This document shows, one piece after another, positions 12,366-23,592 of a stretch of 64,000 bases of DNA (the stretch's first letter is position 1; the number at the start of each line of letters is the position of its first letter). The notes under the pieces are model-generated. The model did not search any database, was not told the origin of the DNA, and saw only the letters and a list, made by a program, of their open reading frames with translations. Source of the stretch: Escherichia coli (GTDB lineage: Bacteria > Pseudomonadota > Gammaproteobacteria > Enterobacterales > Enterobacteriaceae). The DNA is taken from the NCBI RefSeq assembly GCF_003790525.1, contig NZ_CP033635.1. One strand, given 5' to 3'. The translations under genes were made by a program, and so were the position numbers.

Positions 12366-12391
12366 AATTAACTACACCATTAACTACACCG
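12366..12391. repeat. 26-bp element-end repeat 'aattaactacaccattaactacaccg' (tandem 'ttaactacacc'), candidate integrase arm-type site, left end
   Basis: Exact 26-bp copy at 23567-23592 next to the int start; both copies in direct orientation just inside the element ends. Confidence 0.6.
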
Positions 12392-14276: not shown

Positions 14277-14558
14277 TTACCGCCGCAACCGTTCCGGCTT
14301 CTTCCACTGATAAGTGTTTTTCGCGCTCTCCTGATACATCGCCACGCGTCGACGGTATGCCAGCAACTCTAGTACTCTGATTCGTATGTCGCGCATATCC
14401 ACGCCGTTAAGCTCAATACCATCACGGCGCATTACATCAGCAACAACACGCACATAATTTTCGGCGGTCACGCTGTCCGGCTGCGTGGCCTGTTCGTCAT
14501 GCTGCTGGCTGATTCCGGTAACGCGGCGGATTAATCCCAGTAGTTCGACTTCTGTCAT
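14277..14558 (-). CDS. hypothetical protein (~94 aa) immediately downstream of the cos/terS region
   Basis: ORF-track frame 14277..14756; start moved to the internal Met (MTEVELLGL...) so that it does not overlap the cos-like sequence. Function unknown. Confidence 0.4.
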   Translation of the reverse strand: MTEVELLGLIRRVTGISQQHDEQATQPDSVTAENYVRVVADVMRRDGIELNGVDMRDIRIRVLELLAYRRRVAMYQESAKNTYQWKKPERLRR

Positions 14559-14591
14559 TGTGCCCCCATCGCTCTGATAGTCTGGTGTCGT

Positions 14592-14655
14592 CGGGTCCTT
14601 TCCGGCATGTGGACCCGTTACGGGGCGTCGACCTCGCGCGTTTTCACTATTTATG
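14592..14655 (+). other. lambda-like cos site, copy A (cosN plus flanking sequence)
   Basis: 'cgggtcctttccgg...gttacggggcgtcgacctcgcgcgttttcactatttatgaaaattttt' closely parallels the phage lambda cos junction as I recall it ('...acgggtcctttccggtgatccgacaggttacg|gggcggcgacctcgcgggttttcgctatttatgaaaattttccgg'); the 12-mer gggcgtcgacct at 14623-14634 differs from the lambda cohesive end at one base. Confidence 0.75.
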
Positions 14656-14671
14656 AAAATTTTTCGGGATC

Positions 14672-14770
14672 CATGTCCGGTTTCTCTGCAAGTTAACCAT
14701 ATGAAAAATATAAAAACATGCTTTCCATGAACCGGACATGCGCAAAAAACAGACACTAAAACCGGACATC
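14672..14770. promoter_or_regulatory. cosB-like array: three 'ccggacat' repeats (one inverted, two direct) with an AT-rich spacer, candidate binding sites for the element's Nu1-like protein
   Basis: 'catgtccgg' at 14672-14680, 'accggacatg' at 14731-14740, 'accggacatc' at 14761-14770; located on the cosB side of cos copy A, where lambda has R3-I1-R2-R1. Confidence 0.5.
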
Positions 14771-14837
14771 GAACCAGTTAACCGAAAGTGTGCACAAATC
14801 ACATTCATTGCTGCGAGTGATTAACAAGTTATCGGCT

Positions 14838-15272
14838 TTACTGTTCTGTATCGGCTGATTGCTCCATGCTGGCACGGCGAACGCTTACGGCATGACGCCA
14901 CCCAGCCAGAAAGCCAGCCATTTTATTTCGTGCCTTGCTCACATCTTCCGGTGAATAGCCGTAAATATGCAAACCTTCATCAAATCGATGTTCTGTTTCT
15001 TCACTGGAGTACTCGTCACGCTCAGATGAAAGCAGCCTCGCAAACATAATTTTTTCCAGCGCACTGGTTTCTACGTGATATCCGATGGTCTGAAGATGGC
15101 TTTTACCTGAATACCAAAGCAATGTATGCCCGATGTGATAACCGCCAGACTTTCCGCGATCCGCATTAAGATACGGCATCCCCTGTTTGGTCCATGCGCG
15201 AATAGTGGTTCTGTTAACCTTGAAATGTTCAGCTATTTCCTGCTGACTTACAAAACAAGCTTTATCAATCAT
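14838..15272 (-). CDS. terminase small subunit Nu1-like DNA-binding protein (possible packaging-specificity/redirecting factor)
   Basis: N-terminus QQEIAEHFKVNRTTIRAWTKQGMPYL parallels lambda Nu1 KKQLADIFGASIRTIQNWQEQGMPVL (winged HTH); C-terminal half unlike Nu1; flanked by cos-like sites. Confidence 0.65.
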   Translation of the reverse strand: MIDKACFVSQQEIAEHFKVNRTTIRAWTKQGMPYLNADRGKSGGYHIGHTLLWYSGKSHLQTIGYHVETSALEKIMFARLLSSERDEYSSEETEHRFDEGLHIYGYSPEDVSKARNKMAGFLAGWRHAVSVRRASMEQSADTEQ

Positions 15273-15339
15273 AATGTTACCTTAACTGCATGGTTAAATA
15301 TCAATCAAGTGGTGGTGGTGTCACCTTCACGGAAAAACG

Positions 15340-15403
15340 TCATAAATAGCGAAAACGTGCGAGGTCGACGCCCCGTAACGGGTCCACATGCCGGAAAGGA
15401 CCC
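15340..15403 (-). other. lambda-like cos site, copy B (inverted copy of A, cosN plus flank, without the 'ccggacat' array)
   Basis: Reverse complement matches copy A at 62 of 64 positions; lies ~70 bp upstream of the Nu1-like gene start on the same strand. Confidence 0.7.
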
Positions 15404-15404
15404 G

Positions 15405-15430
15405 CAAAAAAAGCCGGATTTCTCCGGCCT
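15405..15430 (-). terminator. rho-independent terminator after the head-gene cluster (minus strand)
   Basis: Minus-strand hairpin ggccggagaaatccggcc followed by a T-run; related hairpin motif at 17324-17345. Confidence 0.5.
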
Positions 15431-15502
15431 TGTCTCAGATGGTTTTCAGTATGCGATAGATGTCGCCGTCATCGCCCTGGTTTGTGCCATCGTTCCCCCT
15501 GC

Positions 15503-15838
15503 TTATCGGGCCAGCGGCTGAACGGATACGCCGGAACCCGCAAAGGCGGCGCATTTTTTCGCATCGGTGTCGACGCTCTCAGGCCAGTTAACGGCGGCAA
15601 TATTGAATATCCCCGTCTTGTAACACTGTGCTGATTTCTGCTTTGACGTGTCCACAGGGTACGAGGTCAGATAAACAGCCTTGCCAGATTCCTTACCATC
15701 CCACGCCTTAAACTCGCCATTGTCTGCCAGCATCAGCGGGGTAAATTCCTGAATAACGCCAGCATCAGCGGCAAAATGTACCAGCGTCGTGGATACCTGT
15801 TGGCTGCCTGAAAATAACTCAATGTATGGAGCGTCCAT
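15503..15838 (-). CDS. head decoration protein, lambda gpD-like
   Basis: 111 aa; motifs TPLMLADNGEFKAWDG, YKTGIF, NWPE and KKCAAFAG parallel lambda gpD (TPLMLDTSSRKLVAWDG, YKSGTF, LWPE, KKRTAFAG) as recalled. Confidence 0.7.
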   Translation of the reverse strand: MDAPYIELFSGSQQVSTTLVHFAADAGVIQEFTPLMLADNGEFKAWDGKESGKAVYLTSYPVDTSKQKSAQCYKTGIFNIAAVNWPESVDTDAKKCAAFAGSGVSVQPLAR

Positions 15839-15849
15839 AGAATCCCCCG

Positions 15850-16905
15850 TTAAGCAATTTTGACGGTAACAAATTTGCGAATATCTGCCGGTACAGGCTG
15901 CGGTGCGCTGTGCGTCTGCACGTACTCAATCGCCGGATCGCCGTCCTCAATCCAGTTTTTCGGGTAGTACATGTTTTGCGTTGCGCCCGTTCTTACCGCT
16001 TCCTGATCCATAATCGCACCATATGCCACCAGCCCTTTATTGTTGGTGTTACCCAGGACCAGCAAATCAGGCTCAAGGAAATATTTTTCGGTCCCGTCGC
16101 TGTCAGTGTATTTGCCGGAATAGACGATAAGGGCCAGATCACCAAGATAGCCTTTAAAGCTCACCACTTCGCCCAGGTTTTTACAGGCCAGCTCGGCGGC
16201 GGATTCTGATCCACGGGAAAGATCGTACAGTTCACGGAATTTTTTAAAGCTGCGTAATGTGCGCCATACCTCACCGCCCATAATCATGACGTTGGCGGGG
16301 CAACCTGCCTGATCAGCATAAAGCTCGATGTCATAGATTGGGTCGTGCATGTCTTTATCCTGCTGGGACCATTTTTTACCACTGGCCTGCTGTATGATGC
16401 AGTTTTCCGGTATTTTCCAGTCGATTTCATAGCGTTCTATGCCTTCGCCCTCAATGATGTTTTTTCCGGTCGTTACCGCATTCACCGCCAGCCATTCCAC
16501 GCGCGCCTTAATGGCGTTTATCTGGCGGCGCATGTTGCCAGTAATCAGGCGCATACGGCGGTAAGTTGGATCGTTAAGCTGTGCCGGATCTTCTCCATCC
16601 ATGCGCATGATGGTCTTTGTTGGATCGATTTCGTGCTTTGGCTTCATGTAGCCTGGTTTAATCGTGCTGGTTTCGTACCCTTTATCGCGCTGGACCTGAC
16701 TACCCACCATAGGAGAACAGAACGCTGACATCGTAACCTCTTCAATGTCCAGGGTGTCCAGCATGATGTTTTGGGTGTTGAAGGTCGCCACGTTCGGGAA
16801 AAACAGCGTGGTAAACAGCGGACTAAATTTATATTCCGAAATATCCCCGCGATTCAGGTACGCGAAAAGCTGGTTAGTTGTAAGTGCCTTTGCTTTGCCT
16901 GTCAT
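15850..16905 (-). CDS. major capsid protein, lambda gpE family
   Basis: 351 aa; YKFSPLFTTLFFP and PGYMKPKHEIDP parallel lambda gpE FKFDPLFLRLFF and PGYVKPKHEVNP; similar length to gpE. Confidence 0.75.
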   Translation of the reverse strand: MTGKAKALTTNQLFAYLNRGDISEYKFSPLFTTLFFPNVATFNTQNIMLDTLDIEEVTMSAFCSPMVGSQVQRDKGYETSTIKPGYMKPKHEIDPTKTIMRMDGEDPAQLNDPTYRRMRLITGNMRRQINAIKARVEWLAVNAVTTGKNIIEGEGIERYEIDWKIPENCIIQQASGKKWSQQDKDMHDPIYDIELYADQAGCPANVMIMGGEVWRTLRSFKKFRELYDLSRGSESAAELACKNLGEVVSFKGYLGDLALIVYSGKYTDSDGTEKYFLEPDLLVLGNTNNKGLVAYGAIMDQEAVRTGATQNMYYPKNWIEDGDPAIEYVQTHSAPQPVPADIRKFVTVKIA

Positions 16906-17111: not shown

Positions 17112-17323
17112 AGTCAGAAATTCCTCTTTGACTTAAAAAATCATAACTGGATGTTCATCCAGTCCTGATTATAATCATGATTGCATTTTGCGCAACAATA
17201 TTGAGTTACGTTGCAAATTATGAAATGATTATCCCGATCATGTGTGTCAGTTCACCATAAAAAACCTCGTATACAAAAGCCCCATAAGCCCCCTGTGACC
17301 TTATCGGGCTTTTTTTAGGCGTA

Positions 17324-17345
17324 AAAAAGCCGGATTGCTCCGGCT
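17324..17345 (-). terminator. rho-independent terminator downstream of the PerC-like gene (minus strand)
   Basis: Minus-strand hairpin gccggagcaatccggc followed by TTTTTT. Confidence 0.5.
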
Positions 17346-17351
17346 GTGTGC

Positions 17352-18656: not shown

Positions 18657-18860
18657 TGCTCACCATCTCTCACTTTTACTACTCACTTTTTAAAGCGTCT
18701 CGCTTCGTCTCACTTGAGATTTTTGTGTTTTGTATGTGCATGTTTCATAAGTGTTTTTTCACTGCTCACTTTTGAGCATGTATACAGGTGAGAAAGTGAG
18801 TAATTGTGTTAATATTTTGTAAAAACCTCACCATTACTCACTTTTACTACTCACTTTTTA
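18657..18860. repeat. iteron array, candidate replication origin ('ctcactttt' repeated ~7 times, one inverted, around an AT-rich core)
   Basis: Copies at 18669, 18682, 18709 (variant), 18765, 18793 (inverted), 18837 and 18850; 'ctcacttttactactcacttttta' occurs twice; lies immediately 3' of the rep ATPase gene. Confidence 0.6.
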
Positions 18861-20264
18861 CAGTGGTCCTACATCATCACCATCAATGTAAATCACGGCG
18901 TCTTTTTCCAGTTTGGCTAACCATCGCCGCATATTTTTCACGTCATACCCAAGCCGTTTCATGTCATCACGTAACAGCGGGATCGTGCACTTGTCGCCGT
19001 TCTGTGTGCGTGAACGGATGCACCCCCATAGCGCGGTATGGTTTTCCGTCTTGTTGCCTGCCTCCTCGATGCGCTCCAGTTCAGCAGGGGCGCGGGGAAC
19101 GTCAATCACCACCATGGACACAATTTCTTCGCCATCTGTATCGGTGAACACCTCCACGCTTTTAAGGTCGTATGCACTCTCTTTTGGCTCCTCTGCGTCC
19201 TTCATCTTCGTACACGCCGCAACCAGTGCTGTAACGTCTGAATTTTCCCTGCTGATTCGGTACTCTGCATCAAGCGCGGCACGGAATGCACTGGAACCAC
19301 GCGCCCCCTTTGTTTCATCCTTGCCGGAATGGTGAACCACCAGCACCGTGGCCCCTGTGGCCTGCTTTATCGCGTCACACCCCTGGATAAATGCGCCCAT
19401 ATCACGGGAATCATTTTCATCATTCCCACCAAAGCAACGGGCCAGCGTGTCGATCACAATCAGCCGCACATTTTCGCCCGTTCTGCTCTTAACAAGTCCG
19501 GCAGTCCTGATAACCTGCTCCACATAGTCAGGCGATGCAGGGAAAACAGGCGCGTTAATGATGCACAAATCTGTAACCACCTTGTCGTGGGTTATCTCCC
19601 ACGCCTTAACGCGGCGTTTTACGCCCATGCTGCCTTCACCAGCGATATAGATAACCGCACCCTTACTTACCCTGCGGCCTCCCCATGCCATACCTGTGGC
19701 AACATGGCACGACCAGGAAATGGCGAGGAACGATTTATAAGAACCGCTGGCCCCGTAGGTGCTGCATAATGACTCAGCCGGAATAAGCCCCTTAATGACG
19801 TAGCTTTGCTGCGCATCGAATCCCTCAGAACCCCATGAGATGGGAAGTGTGATTTTTCGCTTTCCGCCATTCATGACCAGGCTTTCCCCTCTCTCCCATG
19901 TTTCCCGTAGTCGTGGTAGCTGGTCGCTCCAGTCCTCCAGCAGTTCGAAATTTTCAGAAAGTAGCCGCGCCTCCTGGACTCCGGCGATCGCCAGTTTTGT
20001 GGCAATGGTCAGCATCTGCATATCGTCCAGGTTTCCGGCGCGTATGACCTTTACCCTGTATCGTCCTTCATCAACAATCTGTAAGTTGTCCAGTTCGCTT
20101 AACTGATAACGGCCCAGATAAACCGGAGGGATGGGATCGCCTGCTTTTTTGGCCTGTGCAATCATGTAATGTTCTGCAAAGGAGTGAGCATTATCACCCG
20201 CAAAAATAACCGCCTCAGTGTGTTTATCTTTCGGTAACAGTTTTACGTTCGGTGCAAGTTTCAT
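18858..20264 (-). CDS. replication protein with RecA-like P-loop ATPase domain (RepA/DnaB-like, satellite pri-rep type)
   Basis: 468 aa; Walker A YGASGSYKS, Walker B-like RLIVIDTL, HHSGK motif; C-terminal region possibly DNA-binding; iterons directly downstream. Confidence 0.65.
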   Translation of the reverse strand: MKLAPNVKLLPKDKHTEAVIFAGDNAHSFAEHYMIAQAKKAGDPIPPVYLGRYQLSELDNLQIVDEGRYRVKVIRAGNLDDMQMLTIATKLAIAGVQEARLLSENFELLEDWSDQLPRLRETWERGESLVMNGGKRKITLPISWGSEGFDAQQSYVIKGLIPAESLCSTYGASGSYKSFLAISWSCHVATGMAWGGRRVSKGAVIYIAGEGSMGVKRRVKAWEITHDKVVTDLCIINAPVFPASPDYVEQVIRTAGLVKSRTGENVRLIVIDTLARCFGGNDENDSRDMGAFIQGCDAIKQATGATVLVVHHSGKDETKGARGSSAFRAALDAEYRISRENSDVTALVAACTKMKDAEEPKESAYDLKSVEVFTDTDGEEIVSMVVIDVPRAPAELERIEEAGNKTENHTALWGCIRSRTQNGDKCTIPLLRDDMKRLGYDVKNMRRWLAKLEKDAVIYIDGDDVGPL

Positions 20265-20548
20265 TTCTTACCCCCTGCGACCAGCATTTCACGGATTTTG
20301 CGGATATAACTTGCAGCACGTTTCTGATTAACGGCTTTACGATGGCCCACCAGCGTGAAATCACGCCGGAACTGATAAACAGGCATAACGCAGTCATATT
20401 CGTAGCCTTCACGGCGGTAAGTGATGCGACGTTCCTCCACGCCCTTAATCATTACCGTGCCGCCGTAGTTATCACGGAAAATATCGCCGGGACGGATTTC
20501 AGGACGAGCGGGGCCGCTGGCATTAACGCCAGAATTTTTATTTTTCAT
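20261..20548 (-). CDS. hypothetical protein (95 aa), translationally coupled upstream of rep
   Basis: ORF overlapping the rep start by 4 nt; basic; no family recognised. Confidence 0.45.
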   Translation of the reverse strand: MKNKNSGVNASGPARPEIRPGDIFRDNYGGTVMIKGVEERRITYRREGYEYDCVMPVYQFRRDFTLVGHRKAVNQKRAASYIRKIREMLVAGGKK

Positions 20549-20553
20549 GTTTT

Positions 20554-20781
20554 TTATTCTCCGGTGTGCTGTTCTTTATATCTGTCGTGAATTGCCATCA
20601 CTGTATTTAATTCATTAATAACAGCCGTTAATAGCGTACGCACGGCAGAAAACATCATTGAATCAGATTCATCGCCACTTTCCTGCACATCAATTAAATT
20701 AAGTAGTAATGCGTCCATTTCCTTTGCGCGGATTAATGCCTTTTCACAATGAAAAATAACACCAAAGGGTATTTTATTCAT
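20554..20781 (-). CDS. hypothetical protein (~75 aa; ORF-track frame extends to 20823)
   Basis: First gene of the minus-strand replication operon; start uncertain (MNKIPFGV... versus the upstream Met). Confidence 0.4.
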   Translation of the reverse strand: MNKIPFGVIFHCEKALIRAKEMDALLLNLIDVQESGDESDSMMFSAVRTLLTAVINELNTVMAIHDRYKEQHTGE

Positions 20782-21060
20782 GACTCCCCTCCTGACGGAT
20801 ACGGGCGGCGAATACAGCGACACAACCGGACGGGCAACGGTTACGCGCTTCGCGTTCCGTCCAGGCGGTCACGTGGATAATTTGAGATTCTCCGGCACTC
20901 AGTGCCAGAAAACGCCACACAAAGGCGGTTTGTGTGTGCGCTAGTCGTGGGGTATGCTGTGTTCCAGCCATAATCGTTACTCCTGTTAACGGTTTGGTTA
21001 GACGCCCTGCATGTGTTACAGCACTGCGGGGCGTTGTCTTTTTAACGGCTTTCGTGATAG

Positions 21061-21104
21061 GGTGTACACCTATCAAGCAAAAACATAACGCTATAGGTGT
21101 ACAC
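21061..21104. promoter_or_regulatory. perfect 12-bp inverted repeat (gtgtacacctat ... ataggtgtacac), candidate operator abutting a small regulator gene
   Basis: Read directly from sequence; the 3' half ends 1 nt before the ATG at 21105. Confidence 0.5.
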
Positions 21105-21299
21105 ATGTCAACAGTTATTAAGCGAGATAAAAAACCAAAGGGAACAGGAAAAGCCCCCCCATTCCATATGCGAATAGCTCCAGAACTGAAAGAGCAGTTT
21201 GATAATGAGGCCAGCAATGATGGGGTAAGCCTAGCCAACTGGCTTAAAGAGTTGGGGCGCGCCGAACTAAAGCGACGCGGCATTGAACCTAAAGGCTGA
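21105..21299 (+). CDS. small basic protein (64 aa), possible ribbon-helix-helix/YlcI-YnfO-like prophage regulator
   Basis: MSTVIKRDKKPKGTGKAPPFHMRIAPELKEQFDNEASNDGVSLANWLKELGRAELKRRGIEPKG; family assignment from memory only; divergent from the replication operon. Confidence 0.4.
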   Translation: MSTVIKRDKKPKGTGKAPPFHMRIAPELKEQFDNEASNDGVSLANWLKELGRAELKRRGIEPKG

Positions 21300-21302
21300 T
21301 GT

Positions 21303-21426
21303 ATGACTGAAAAGCAGACCGATAACAAACTTTCTCTACCAGAGAATAAACCAGCAGGCTTCTTACCAAGAAAAATCCTTGATGAGATCAAACGCCGCCA
21401 GCGCCGCAAGGCCAAAGAGCAGGAAT
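21303..21426 (+). CDS. possible small protein (41 aa, Lys/Arg-rich C-terminus)
   Basis: ATG 4 nt after the preceding stop; MTEKQTDNKLSLPENKPAGFLPRKILDEIKRRQRRKAKEQE; followed by a strong hairpin terminator. Too short for the ORF track. Confidence 0.25.
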
Positions 21427-21460
21427 AGCCCACCAGCAAGCCAGCACACTGATCACATTG

Positions 21461-21490
21461 GCCACCGTGACAGGTGGCCTTTTCTTTGCC
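21461..21490 (+). terminator. rho-independent terminator (ggccaccgtgacaggtggcc + T-rich tract)
   Basis: Perfect 7-bp stem with 6-nt loop followed by ttttctttg, just after the 41-codon ORF. Confidence 0.55.
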
Positions 21491-21752
21491 CGTTATCCGG
21501 CAATTGTGGCGCTTCGCCACACGGTTGATATAATTCCCCTGCTCAGATTCATTTTTTGCGCGGCAGGTAAATTGTTCAGAAAGGCGGCTCCTTATCGGGG
21601 CCGCTTTTTTTATGTCTGAAAAACCGCGATTTTGTTGTTTTTCAGTTTCACCAGGCCGAACGAAGCCCCGCCCATGTTCGGGCGTATATCCAGTCTTCAT
21701 GGTTAAATCTCTGTATTAGTGGATGGGTGGCGGCTGTGTGCCGCCAGTCTTT

Positions 21753-21941
21753 TTAGTGAACTGCCTCGCAGCTTTCCTTCCATGCCAGAACTTCGGATAA
21801 AGACCAGCCAACGGAACGACCGCCCAGCTTACGCCGTGATGGGAATTGTCCGGCCTTTTCCAGGCGGTAGCGGCATGAGCGGCTAAGGCCTGTTAGCTTT
21901 TCGCATTCTTTTTCACGTATAAAGCGATCAGTGCTTAACAC
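21753..21941 (-). CDS. alpA: AlpA-family (Phage_AlpA) transcriptional regulator
   Basis: 62 aa; ...EKLTGLSRSCRYRLEKAGQFPSRRKLGGRSVGWSLSEVLAW... matches the AlpA HTH signature; adjacent to int. Confidence 0.75.
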   Translation of the reverse strand: MLSTDRFIREKECEKLTGLSRSCRYRLEKAGQFPSRRKLGGRSVGWSLSEVLAWKESCEAVH

Positions 21942-22315: not shown

Positions 22316-23563
22316 TTATTTTCTTCTGGCTACTGGTAGCGTGGTTACGTTTTCATGTGCTCCCGCCAGTATCTCCAACCGCTCCACCCACATATCCAGC
22401 GCATTGCGTTTCGCATCCAGATAACGGGAATGATTATAAACTCGCTGCATTCCTGGCATCTGGTGGCCTGTAAGCTGCTCCACGACGTGAGGATCCACGC
22501 CTAAATCGTTCAGCATCGTTGTAAAGGTGCGCCGGATGTCATGCAGTGACCATTGAGGGTGTTTTAGCCTCCTGTGCGCTAATCTGCCGTACTGCGATAC
22601 GCTGGCCTCCTGTTTCACTTCCCCCAGTAATAAGCCCGTGTGCCTGTTCTGCTCCACCAGCCGCGTGACGAACGGCAGGATCGCTTCCGGTATGGGCCGG
22701 AATATTGCGACCTTCGTTTTGCTGTGCTCCTTCGGAACGGTCCAGAGCATTTCCGTGAAATCCCACTCCCCGATCTCCGATAACCTCAGTTCTACCGTCC
22801 TGGCTCCGAAGACAATCAGGAGGCGGATTAGTGCGACGTAGTAAGGGGAAAATATTTTTTTGTCCAGTGCCTGCAATAATTCGCCCAGTTCTTTGGTGCT
22901 TAAGACACGTTCGCTTATATCCGGTTTTTTCCCAACGTCCGCCACGTTCAGATCGTCCAGAACGTTGCTGATTGCATAGCGCCGCCTCCGGCAAAACTTA
23001 AGCGCCTGTTTGCACGCCTGTAGCACGAATCCGGCAGTAACAGGCGTTCGCTTTGCCACCCGATCAAAACAGGCCAGCCAGTGCCGTAGCTCGCATTTAT
23101 CCAGCGGCATAGCACCAATGTGCTGTATTACGTGATTATTAAGTCGCCTTTTCAGGGCGATATAATCCACGCGGTTTTCCTTTACGTAAGACTCAAGCCA
23201 GTAGGTGAGCGCATCTCCAACCGTTACAGGCTTTAACGCTTCCTGCATGGTGTAATTCATCTCATGACGTGGATTTTTCCCCTCAGCCAGCCATGCGCGA
23301 CACTGGGCGGCTTTTTCCCTGGCTGATTTCAGGCTCAGATCAGGATAATTTCCCAGCTTAATACGTTCCGGTCGTGTCTCTCTTCCCGTTCCGGCCCTGT
23401 AAGTGAAATACCAGGTTAAAAGGCCGCTGGTTGAATGCCTGACGCTCAGATTTCCACCGTCATTAAGAAAGGCTGTTTTTTGGGCGGGTGTGCCGTTGAT
23501 TTTCCTTAGCTGTGTATCGCTCAGCTTGTTAAGTGCTCTGGTCATAATTTTGAATCCGGTCAT
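22316..23563 (-). CDS. int: tyrosine site-specific integrase (P4-type)
   Basis: ~415 aa; N-terminal arm-binding-like region, C-terminal catalytic motifs (HDIRRTF, GHQ..VYNHSRY); located at the element's right end next to the arm-type repeat. Exact start uncertain (GTG/ATG/ATG cluster). Confidence 0.85.
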   Translation of the reverse strand: MTGFKIMTRALNKLSDTQLRKINGTPAQKTAFLNDGGNLSVRHSTSGLLTWYFTYRAGTGRETRPERIKLGNYPDLSLKSAREKAAQCRAWLAEGKNPRHEMNYTMQEALKPVTVGDALTYWLESYVKENRVDYIALKRRLNNHVIQHIGAMPLDKCELRHWLACFDRVAKRTPVTAGFVLQACKQALKFCRRRRYAISNVLDDLNVADVGKKPDISERVLSTKELGELLQALDKKIFSPYYVALIRLLIVFGARTVELRLSEIGEWDFTEMLWTVPKEHSKTKVAIFRPIPEAILPFVTRLVEQNRHTGLLLGEVKQEASVSQYGRLAHRRLKHPQWSLHDIRRTFTTMLNDLGVDPHVVEQLTGHQMPGMQRVYNHSRYLDAKRNALDMWVERLEILAGAHENVTTLPVARRK

Positions 23564-23566
23564 CAC

Positions 23567-23592
23567 AATTAACTACACCATTAACTACACCG
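23567..23592. repeat. 26-bp element-end repeat (same as 12366-12391), right end, immediately upstream of int
   Basis: Exact 26/26 identity with the left copy. Confidence 0.6.

Follow-up and report, generated by a model that had tools for sequence, protein, structure and literature searches.

Which protein reads the three short repeats that follow a near-copy of the lambda cos site in an Escherichia coli chromosomal island: the island's own Nu1-like protein, RppA, or the small terminase subunit (TerS) of a helper phage? The question is raised by positions 14592-14770 of a 64,000-nucleotide stretch of E. coli DNA (NCBI RefSeq assembly GCF_003790525.1, contig NZ_CP033635.1; hereafter the window), which lie within a phage-inducible chromosomal island (PICI) of the RppA type, a close relative of EcCICFT073. 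An earlier reading made from the letters alone (the sequence-only reading) had assigned the repeats to the island's protein, as a private, element-specific cosB. Our analysis points elsewhere. The site is the ortholog of the already published cos2 of EcCICFT073, and we consider it probable that cos2 is a copied phage cos whose repeats are read by the helper's own TerS, while RppA serves the island's other site, cos1. The helpers in question belong to a lambda-like prophage lineage with this cosB and a 169-aa TerS, for which we use the provisional name type A.

A lambda-like cos with three repeats

The likeness to lambda noticed at 14592-14668 was borne out by alignment: blastn, run on the 64-kb window, matched 14592-14667 to positions -30 to +45 of the lambda cos junction, taken in circularised form (76 nt without gaps, 84.2% identity, E=9e-19). 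As the sequence-only reading had it, the 12-mer cohesive end is one base off that of lambda (G6T), and both flanks align. The three ccggacat copies that it listed, one inverted and two direct, were found in place, with the 8-mer CCGGACAT (ccggacat) at 14673-14680 (minus strand), 14732-14739 and 14762-14769, a spacing of 59 and 30 bp; the full repeat unit is the 10-mer AACCGGACAT, at 14673-14682 (minus), 14730-14739 and 14760-14769. The three 10-mers span 97 bp and have no further copy in the window, and when the window was randomised 100 times by a first-order Markov model, no such cluster (a 10-mer three times within 100 bp) arose. The site is made up as follows:

14593..14603, plus strand: cosQ core GGGTCCTTTCC, the same as the lambda cosQ core and, as in lambda, 30 nt ahead of cosN.
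14623..14634, plus strand: cosN, cohesive end GGGCGTCGACCT, with 11 of 12 lambda bases and the single change G6T.
14635..14671, plus strand: I2-like spacer from cosN to the first repeat, with about 30 of 33 positions as in lambda bp 13-45.
14672..14682, plus strand: R3-position repeat CATGTCCGGTT (cos2 bp 50-60), placed as lambda R3.
14683..14729, plus strand: AT-rich spacer that separates the R3- and R2-position repeats, at the place of the IHF site I1 of lambda.
14730..14740, plus strand: R2-position repeat AACCGGACATG (bp 108-118), in the opposite orientation to the repeat at the R3 position.
14760..14769, plus strand: R1-position repeat AACCGGACAT (bp 138-147); phage cos homology stops at most about 10 bp further on.

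The site thus shares with lambda the cosQ core, the spacing, 11 of the 12 cosN bases, I2, and three repeats at roughly the places of R3, R2 and R1 (in lambda, bp 49-64, 109-124 and 151-166), with R3 inverted relative to R2. It has a cosN with its flanks, a cosQ at the lambda distance and, at the cosB positions, R repeats that are putative TerS-binding sites. What it lacks is a TerS gene directly downstream: such a gene follows the lambda cos, whereas cos2 is followed by the 3' end of rppA on the opposite strand.

Because the repeats sit in the 279 bp that separate two minus-strand genes, and combine inverted and direct copies of the kind bound by regulators, they could conceivably be the operator or promoter region of rppA or of the 93-aa open reading frame (ORF) on the other side, next to a cosN by coincidence. 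We find this scarcely credible: no sigma-70-like promoter was found in 14560-14840, and the same array recurs in phages beside other genes (Nu1), at a fixed distance from cosN. Scanning the same segment yielded one weak terminator-like hairpin, which overlaps the first repeat.

The flagged site is the ortholog of EcCICFT073 cos2, since the cos2 text printed for that island (Fillol-Salom 2019, PMC6739421, Fig. S1A) matches window 14588-14810, including GGATCCATGTCCGGTTT … AACCGGACATGCGCAAAAAACAGACACTAAAACCGGACAT and all three repeats; the printed cos1 matches window 15404-15270 (minus), upstream of rppA. As in EcCICFT073, cos2 is an inverted cos downstream of rppA, about 650 bp from the rpp start, and its cosB is 99.4% identical to the published one, with the three repeats. 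The 3' part of the island and the corresponding end of EcCICFT073 in E. coli CFT073 are 94-97% identical in DNA. The neighbors are the same, i.e., a major capsid protein (MCP) homolog, a head decoration homolog, rppA and the 93-aa ORF, and so is the order cos1, rppA, inverted cos2, 93-aa ORF (in the CFT073 locus L004, the two cos lie at 2559 (+) and 3309 (-)). The two islands differ in the cosN of cos2 (GGGCGGCGACCT there, GGGCGTCGACCT here), in the segment from bp -30 to +12 (cosQ to cosN), which is identical between cos1 and cos2 here and has several differences between them in CFT073, and in the island site, which is tqsA here and next to phoQ for EcCICFT073.

From the literature, cos2 of EcCICFT073 works as a cos, does not respond to RppA and can be dispensed with when the helper is lambda or phi80. 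Cloning either cos1 or cos2 of the CFT073 island into a plasmid led to its transfer by lambda and phi80; as for the transfer of the island itself, deletion of cos1 lowered it, deletion of cos2 raised it, and deletion of both abolished it (PMC6092414). The proposal of the sequence-only reading that a lambdoid helper terminase could use this cosN therefore stands, given that cos2 of the 99%-identical CFT073 ortholog is functional (PMC6092414); its companion proposal, that the cosN is joined to a private cosB, does not, the cosB being of a phage type.

The repeat array in phages and prophages

When 14660-14840 was used as a query, the matches covered 14660-14769, i.e., all three repeats. Five Escherichia phages (PhiR12_1 and relatives) have this segment at 98% identity, and it is 84-98% identical to DNA in 1184 of the 5426 complete E. 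coli genomes, CFT073 among them. In PhiR12_1 and in a prophage of strain EDL933, the matching segment lies between cosN and the gene for a 169-aa TerS. Among the type A TerS loci of IMG/VR, 79 of 80 have an upstream cos. Counted from the cohesive end, all 79 have the 8-mer ATGTCCGG at bp 51, 74 have CCGGACAT at bp 110, and 78 have CCGGACAT at bp 139 or 140; all three are in place in 73 of the 79, and in 68 they occupy exactly the positions of the window's cos2 (bp 51, 110 and 140). The DNA between the repeats varies, with 38 distinct sequences among these phage loci. Over bp -30 to +70, the window's cos2 agrees at 100 of 100 positions with one type A phage contig (L099). The G6T cosN is shared by L099, and phage-like contigs whose cosB is of the lambda, A or N15 type have this variant as well. 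Island and phage are homologous from cosQ to at most about 10 bp past the third repeat (R1), which is exactly the functional unit.

Judged by these alignments, cos2 is a complete copy of a phage cos, comprising cosQ, cosN, an I2-like spacer and a tripartite cosB. The array is not private, because the same repeats stand upstream of a TerS gene in 79 phage loci and in the DNA of ~1180 E. coli genomes; the description of it as element-specific had to be dropped, the complete array being present in 73 of the 79 type A phage loci. Since the repeats precede the phages' own 169-aa TerS gene, they are probably read by a helper TerS and not by RppA. A type A cos occurs in about 13-22% of the complete E. 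coli genomes.

The protein that would read this array is only partly like lambda Nu1. Type A TerS is 46% identical to Nu1 over residues 73-164, in the C-terminal half only, and matches the Pfam family Phage_Nu1 at model positions 62-163 only; between its N-terminal DNA-binding domain (DBD) and that of lambda Nu1, we detected no sequence similarity. RppA, by comparison, gives a weak match to Phage_Nu1 that is confined to the N-terminal DNA-binding part, so that the Nu1 matches of the two proteins are reverse patterns. Among deposited genomes of E. coli phages, only the PhiR12 phages have a near-identical DBD. The N-terminal domain of an Aeromonas phage TerS is 51% identical to that of type A, and this phage has CATTTCCGGTT at bp 52-62 of its left end; the joint occurrence of a related DBD and this element supports a link between the DBD family and the R sequence, and suggests that the type A specificity class extends beyond Enterobacteriaceae. 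The Aeromonas phage in question is the N15-like phiARM81ld (L126 1-80); its left end has the cohesive end GGGCGTTAGACC, and the CATTTCCGGTT element is single there.

Three lambda-like packaging specificities, those of lambda, 21 and N15, are on record (Feiss et al. 2015, PMC4669245). The cosB regions of phage 21 and of N15/Monarch follow the same modular logic as the one described here: cosQ and cosN are shared, cosB sets the specificity, and the N-terminal domain of TerS matches it. Type A cosB and its TerS DBD fit none of the three specificities (PMC4669245). We considered the repeats as lambda-type R sites and rejected this (CGTTTCC in lambda, CATGTCCGG here). They were rejected as 21-type R sites, too: the 21-like CFT073 phage 4 has ATGTCGG, similar but one C shorter, and its TerS DBD is different.

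RppA, cos1 and the island

The sequence-only reading had overlooked a second cos, cos1, which is the other arm of a 78-nt inverted repeat that includes cos2 (14592-14669 and 15327-15404, 91% complementary). The two sites lie ~750 bp apart and converge on the rppA segment:

14838..15272, minus strand: rppA-like gene, encoding a 144-aa Nu1-like winged helix-turn-helix (HTH) protein, between the two convergent cos sites.
15273..15361, minus strand: cos1 cosB (contains CCGTGAAGGTGACACCACCACCAC), in agreement with the published cos1 and directly upstream of rppA.
15362..15373, minus strand: cos1 cosN GGGCGTCGACCT; the rppA ATG is at bp 102, as for the published rpp start.
15393..15403, minus strand: cos1 cosQ core GGGTCCTTTCC, in the arm 15327-15404.

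The encoded RppA is 96% identical to the 144-aa protein of CFT073, whose N-terminus agrees with the printed RppA sequence, and matches the crystal structure of RppC (6hlk, E=4e-32). In published work on this island family, RppA binds the helper TerS, blocks its use of the phage cos and, in cosB swaps, boosts the transfer only of plasmids with the cos1 cosB; interference with the helper is strong and maps to Rpp alone (PMC6739421). The TerS that RppA redirects to cos1 are of the lambda, phi80 and 21 types. A putative Rpp site has been placed at bp 48-65 of cos1 (Murialdo & Feiss 2022, PMC9026076). The window contains this cos1/RppA redirection system (Fillol-Salom 2019; Murialdo & Feiss 2022), 750 bp from the flagged site. 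The cos1 cosB (…GTGAAGGTGACACCACCACCAC…) does not resemble the ccggacat array, and the hallmark of an Rpp-responsive cosB, ACCACCACC at bp 55-63, is missing from cos2 and found only at 15273-15361 (minus). A comparison of the cos1 cosB with 50,697 phage records gave zero matches; it is this segment that is truly private to the island.

These results bear on the idea that the ccggacat repeats are a private cosB bound by RppA, alone or together with a helper TerS, which would divert helper packaging from here. A Nu1-like winged-HTH protein is indeed encoded beside cos2, the repeats are at R-site positions, and the Rpp mechanism is real in this family. Nevertheless, the idea is largely refuted and retains very little probability. 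Besides the recurrence of the repeats upstream of TerS in the 79 phage loci and in ~1180 E. coli genomes, the published swap puts RppA action at the cos1 cosB (PMC6739421), and it is cos1, not cos2, that is needed for transfer; moreover, sister islands with near-identical RppA have an unrelated, N15-type cos2 cosB and a nearly unchanged cos1 cosB. Because RppA-dependent transfer in the swap comes only from the cos1 cosB, RppA is probably not the reader of the repeats, contrary to what had been proposed. The diversion of helper packaging that had been envisaged does exist in the island family, through Rpp and a private cosB, only that its place is cos1 and not the flagged site.

The host element is an RppA-type PICI of the EcCICFT073 family, with the size, int, alpA, replication module and att repeats of such islands and an rpp gene with cos1 about 100 bp upstream. 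It is ~11.2 kb long and splits tqsA, as read from the ORFs and from the RefSeq annotation of a near-identical genome, strain PKF11; the remainder of the window is core chromosome. The island encodes an integrase, AlpA, an Icd-like protein, a DUF4222 protein, a RepA-family helicase, SSB and PerC-family regulators, along with the major-capsid and head-decoration homologs, rppA and the 93-aa ORF. Searches of the window by tblastn with four types of TerS and a large terminase subunit (TerL) revealed no terminase genes, and no helper prophage lies within the window. Its further features are:

12366..12391, strand not assigned: left att, a 26-bp direct repeat inside the split tqsA.
23567..23592, strand not assigned: right att, a 26-bp direct repeat that adjoins the integrase gene.
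22316-23566, minus strand: integrase gene.
14277..14558, minus strand: 93-aa ORF of unknown function, on the cosQ side of cos2, with a match to phrog_1561.

The 93-aa ORF is also kept in CFT073 (L004 3374-3655) and in a further island locus (L008). The head decoration and major capsid homologs are lambda-like (15503-15838 and 15850-16905, minus; phrog_49, 2e-26, and phrog_29, 1.7e-108) and are present in an island without portal, protease or terminase. Between the head-decoration gene and cos1, CFT073 (L004 2084-2497), L008 (9060-9473) and some relatives have a 137-aa ORF that is absent from the window's island (15404-15503). A hairpin that is rich in GC and has an A/T run, AAAAAAGCCGGATTTCTCCGGCC, occurs at 15407-15433 and at 17323-17349. 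The two copies, which are 89% identical, resemble bidirectional terminators, and one of them lies immediately outside the cos1 cosQ. The only other 10-mer triple cluster in the window is made up of TACTCACTTT repeats (18659-18863, 10-mers starting at 18680, 18793, 18835 and 18848); together with a direct repeat of 37 nt (at 18659-18695 and at 18827-18863), it follows closely on the 3' end of the gene for the RepA-family helicase (18858-20264, minus), and this is probably the island's replication origin, with the repeats as iterons. From the helicase gene to alpA (~20264-21753), the island has 84 bases more than that of PKF11, as deduced from coordinate offsets.

Sister islands, helpers and the role of cos2

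In the 24 RppA-type loci of IMG/VR (90-97% identity), cos1 stands exactly 101 bp before the ATG and its cosB is nearly unchanged. All 20 of these loci with enough downstream sequence have an inverted cos2 (21 of 21 with the window), and the dual-cos architecture is found in all relatives examined. The cosB of cos2 comes in two types:

Type A array: 11 IMG/VR loci and the window.
GGTTGTTGT / ACAACAACC repeats (N15/Monarch type): 9 IMG/VR loci, in the same inverted position.

GGTTGTTGT is the R3 sequence of phage N15 (bp 48-59). Phage contigs also have it in triplicate upstream of an N15-like TerS, an arrangement described as 'Monarch' (Feiss et al. 2015, PMC4669245). In cos2 of the N15/Monarch type, homology between island and phage likewise ends just past R1. 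An RppB-like island has dual cos, too, with an N15-type cosB at cos2. In this island (L037 2370-2500 and 2950-3180) the cos are convergent, and their cosN regions, …GCGGGGCGGGAGCGGCGC… and …GGGGGTAGCCATACGCGC…, are unlike each other and unlike lambda.

Cohesive-end position 6 is polymorphic (G, T, A) across islands and phages with four cosB types (loci L007-L016, L024, L027 and L040): it is T at both cos in the window and in L036, and G at cos1 with A at cos2 in L024 and L027. Variants of the cosQ spacer are shuffled between cos1 and cos2 among islands. Both patterns suggest that one inverted arm has converted the other, or that there was exchange with phages.

Such mosaicism, the 100-bp identity of cos2 to a phage contig, which indicates recent exchange, and the increase of lambda and phi80 transfer upon deletion of cos2 would fit a site that is a non-adaptive footprint of recombination between island and prophage across the shared cosQ-cosN core, tolerated or mildly harmful, with no role in transfer. 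We regard this as unlikely, though worth keeping in view. Each of the 21 RppA-type islands for which the sequence suffices has an inverted cos2, as does the RppB-like island; the copied segment reaches exactly from cosQ to R1 with intact R repeats in both cosB types, and a convergent, cuttable site should be costly, so that its persistence would speak for a compensating benefit.

If, as we favor, cos2 is a copied helper cos, a type A TerS from the helper would bind its repeats and position TerL to nick the cos2 cosN; packaging of island concatemers would then start at cos2 and run through rppA, without RppA, while RppA would act on the convergent cos1 via its private cosB. Packaging from cos2 would thus be independent of Rpp, and the island may gain transfer where a type A TerS reads cos2. 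Cutting of both cos in one unit would abort packaging, because the sites converge on the 750-bp rppA segment, and abortive double cutting of this sort fits the higher transfer of the cos2 deletion with lambda helpers; it suggests that cos2 may persist because of a payoff with other helpers. A possible helper of this kind is at hand in E. coli CFT073, where a lambdoid type A prophage resides at potB, ~30 kb from EcCICFT073 (L125 13533-14237; NC_004431 1348533-1349237). Its TerS, WP_000235436, has the same accession as the EDL933 prophage TerS, and in the published island texts examined we found no consideration of this prophage as a helper. More broadly, 43 of the 60 genomes listed with this cos2 have at least one further cosB match, to be set beside the roughly 13-22% of all genomes that have a type A cos.

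Several points weigh against this reading. The published transfer experiments used lambda and phi80 helpers, not type A, and with these helpers deletion of cos2 raises transfer, so that a benefit of cos2 is unproven. Binding of the repeats by type A TerS is deduced from their position, conservation and co-occurrence. The count of genomes with a further cosB match ignores phylogeny, and the further match was verified in only eight genomes. In strain PKF11 a second cosB match was not located, the listing giving the best place per record. The analogy to lambda cosB is also incomplete, since the third repeat is oriented like R2 and not like R3, opposite to lambda R1, and no IHF consensus was found at cos2, unlike at lambda I1: in the AT-rich spacer, the best match to WATCARNNNNTTR still has 2 mismatches, and an IHF site is not established. 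Finally, should the TerS of type A be another binding partner of RppA, the island's cos2 would be shut off and not put to use.

On the other hand, cos2 brings all the helper-type R sites onto an island that replicates to many copies and whose family interferes strongly with its helpers, and it could act as a decoy, titrating helper TerS or terminase or provoking abortive cutting, and so lower helper yield. We hold this to be very unlikely, as the published interference maps to Rpp alone, and a terminase that binds and cuts a complete cos normally proceeds to package.

The copied-cos reading has a counterpart in the staphylococcal cos S. aureus pathogenicity islands (SaPIs) SaPIbov5 and SaPIbov4, which carry a copy of the helper cos and are packaged by the unmodified helper terminase; SaPIbov4 has been reported with two putative cos sites. 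The cos SaPIs differ in their Gram-positive host, in an unrelated, HNH-dependent cos/terminase and in having no Rpp-type redirection. We tentatively extend this reading, at somewhat less than even confidence, to cos2 as a swappable helper-mimic cassette: beside the private, Rpp-dependent cos1, which would serve for terminases of the lambda, phi80 and 21 types, the islands would maintain a second, convergent cos, copied from cosQ to R1 from type A or N15/Monarch prophages, that would offer an Rpp-independent route into helpers whose TerS DBD Rpp cannot reprogram, with type A as a fourth lambda-like specificity, present in ~13-22% of complete E. coli genomes.

Cos2 of EcCICFT073-type islands and redirection by Rpp were already known; in the literature searched, cos2 is mentioned only by Fillol-Salom et al. 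2018 (PMC6092414) and 2019, and it is not discussed by Murialdo & Feiss 2022. In the literature, as far as it is searchable and incomplete as it is, we found neither the phage derivation of the cos2 cosB nor its alternation between two specificities. What is added here is modest: the cos2 cosB faithfully reproduces that of a prophage lineage which is common, contrary to the published description of island cosB regions as completely divergent from phage cosB, and in related islands a copy of the N15/Monarch type takes its place. Should the copies work, these satellites, which are virulence-associated, would be packaged by two strategies and by a range of helpers wider than the lambda and phi80 experiments suggest, and the conservation of a site that lowers transfer by lambda would find an explanation.

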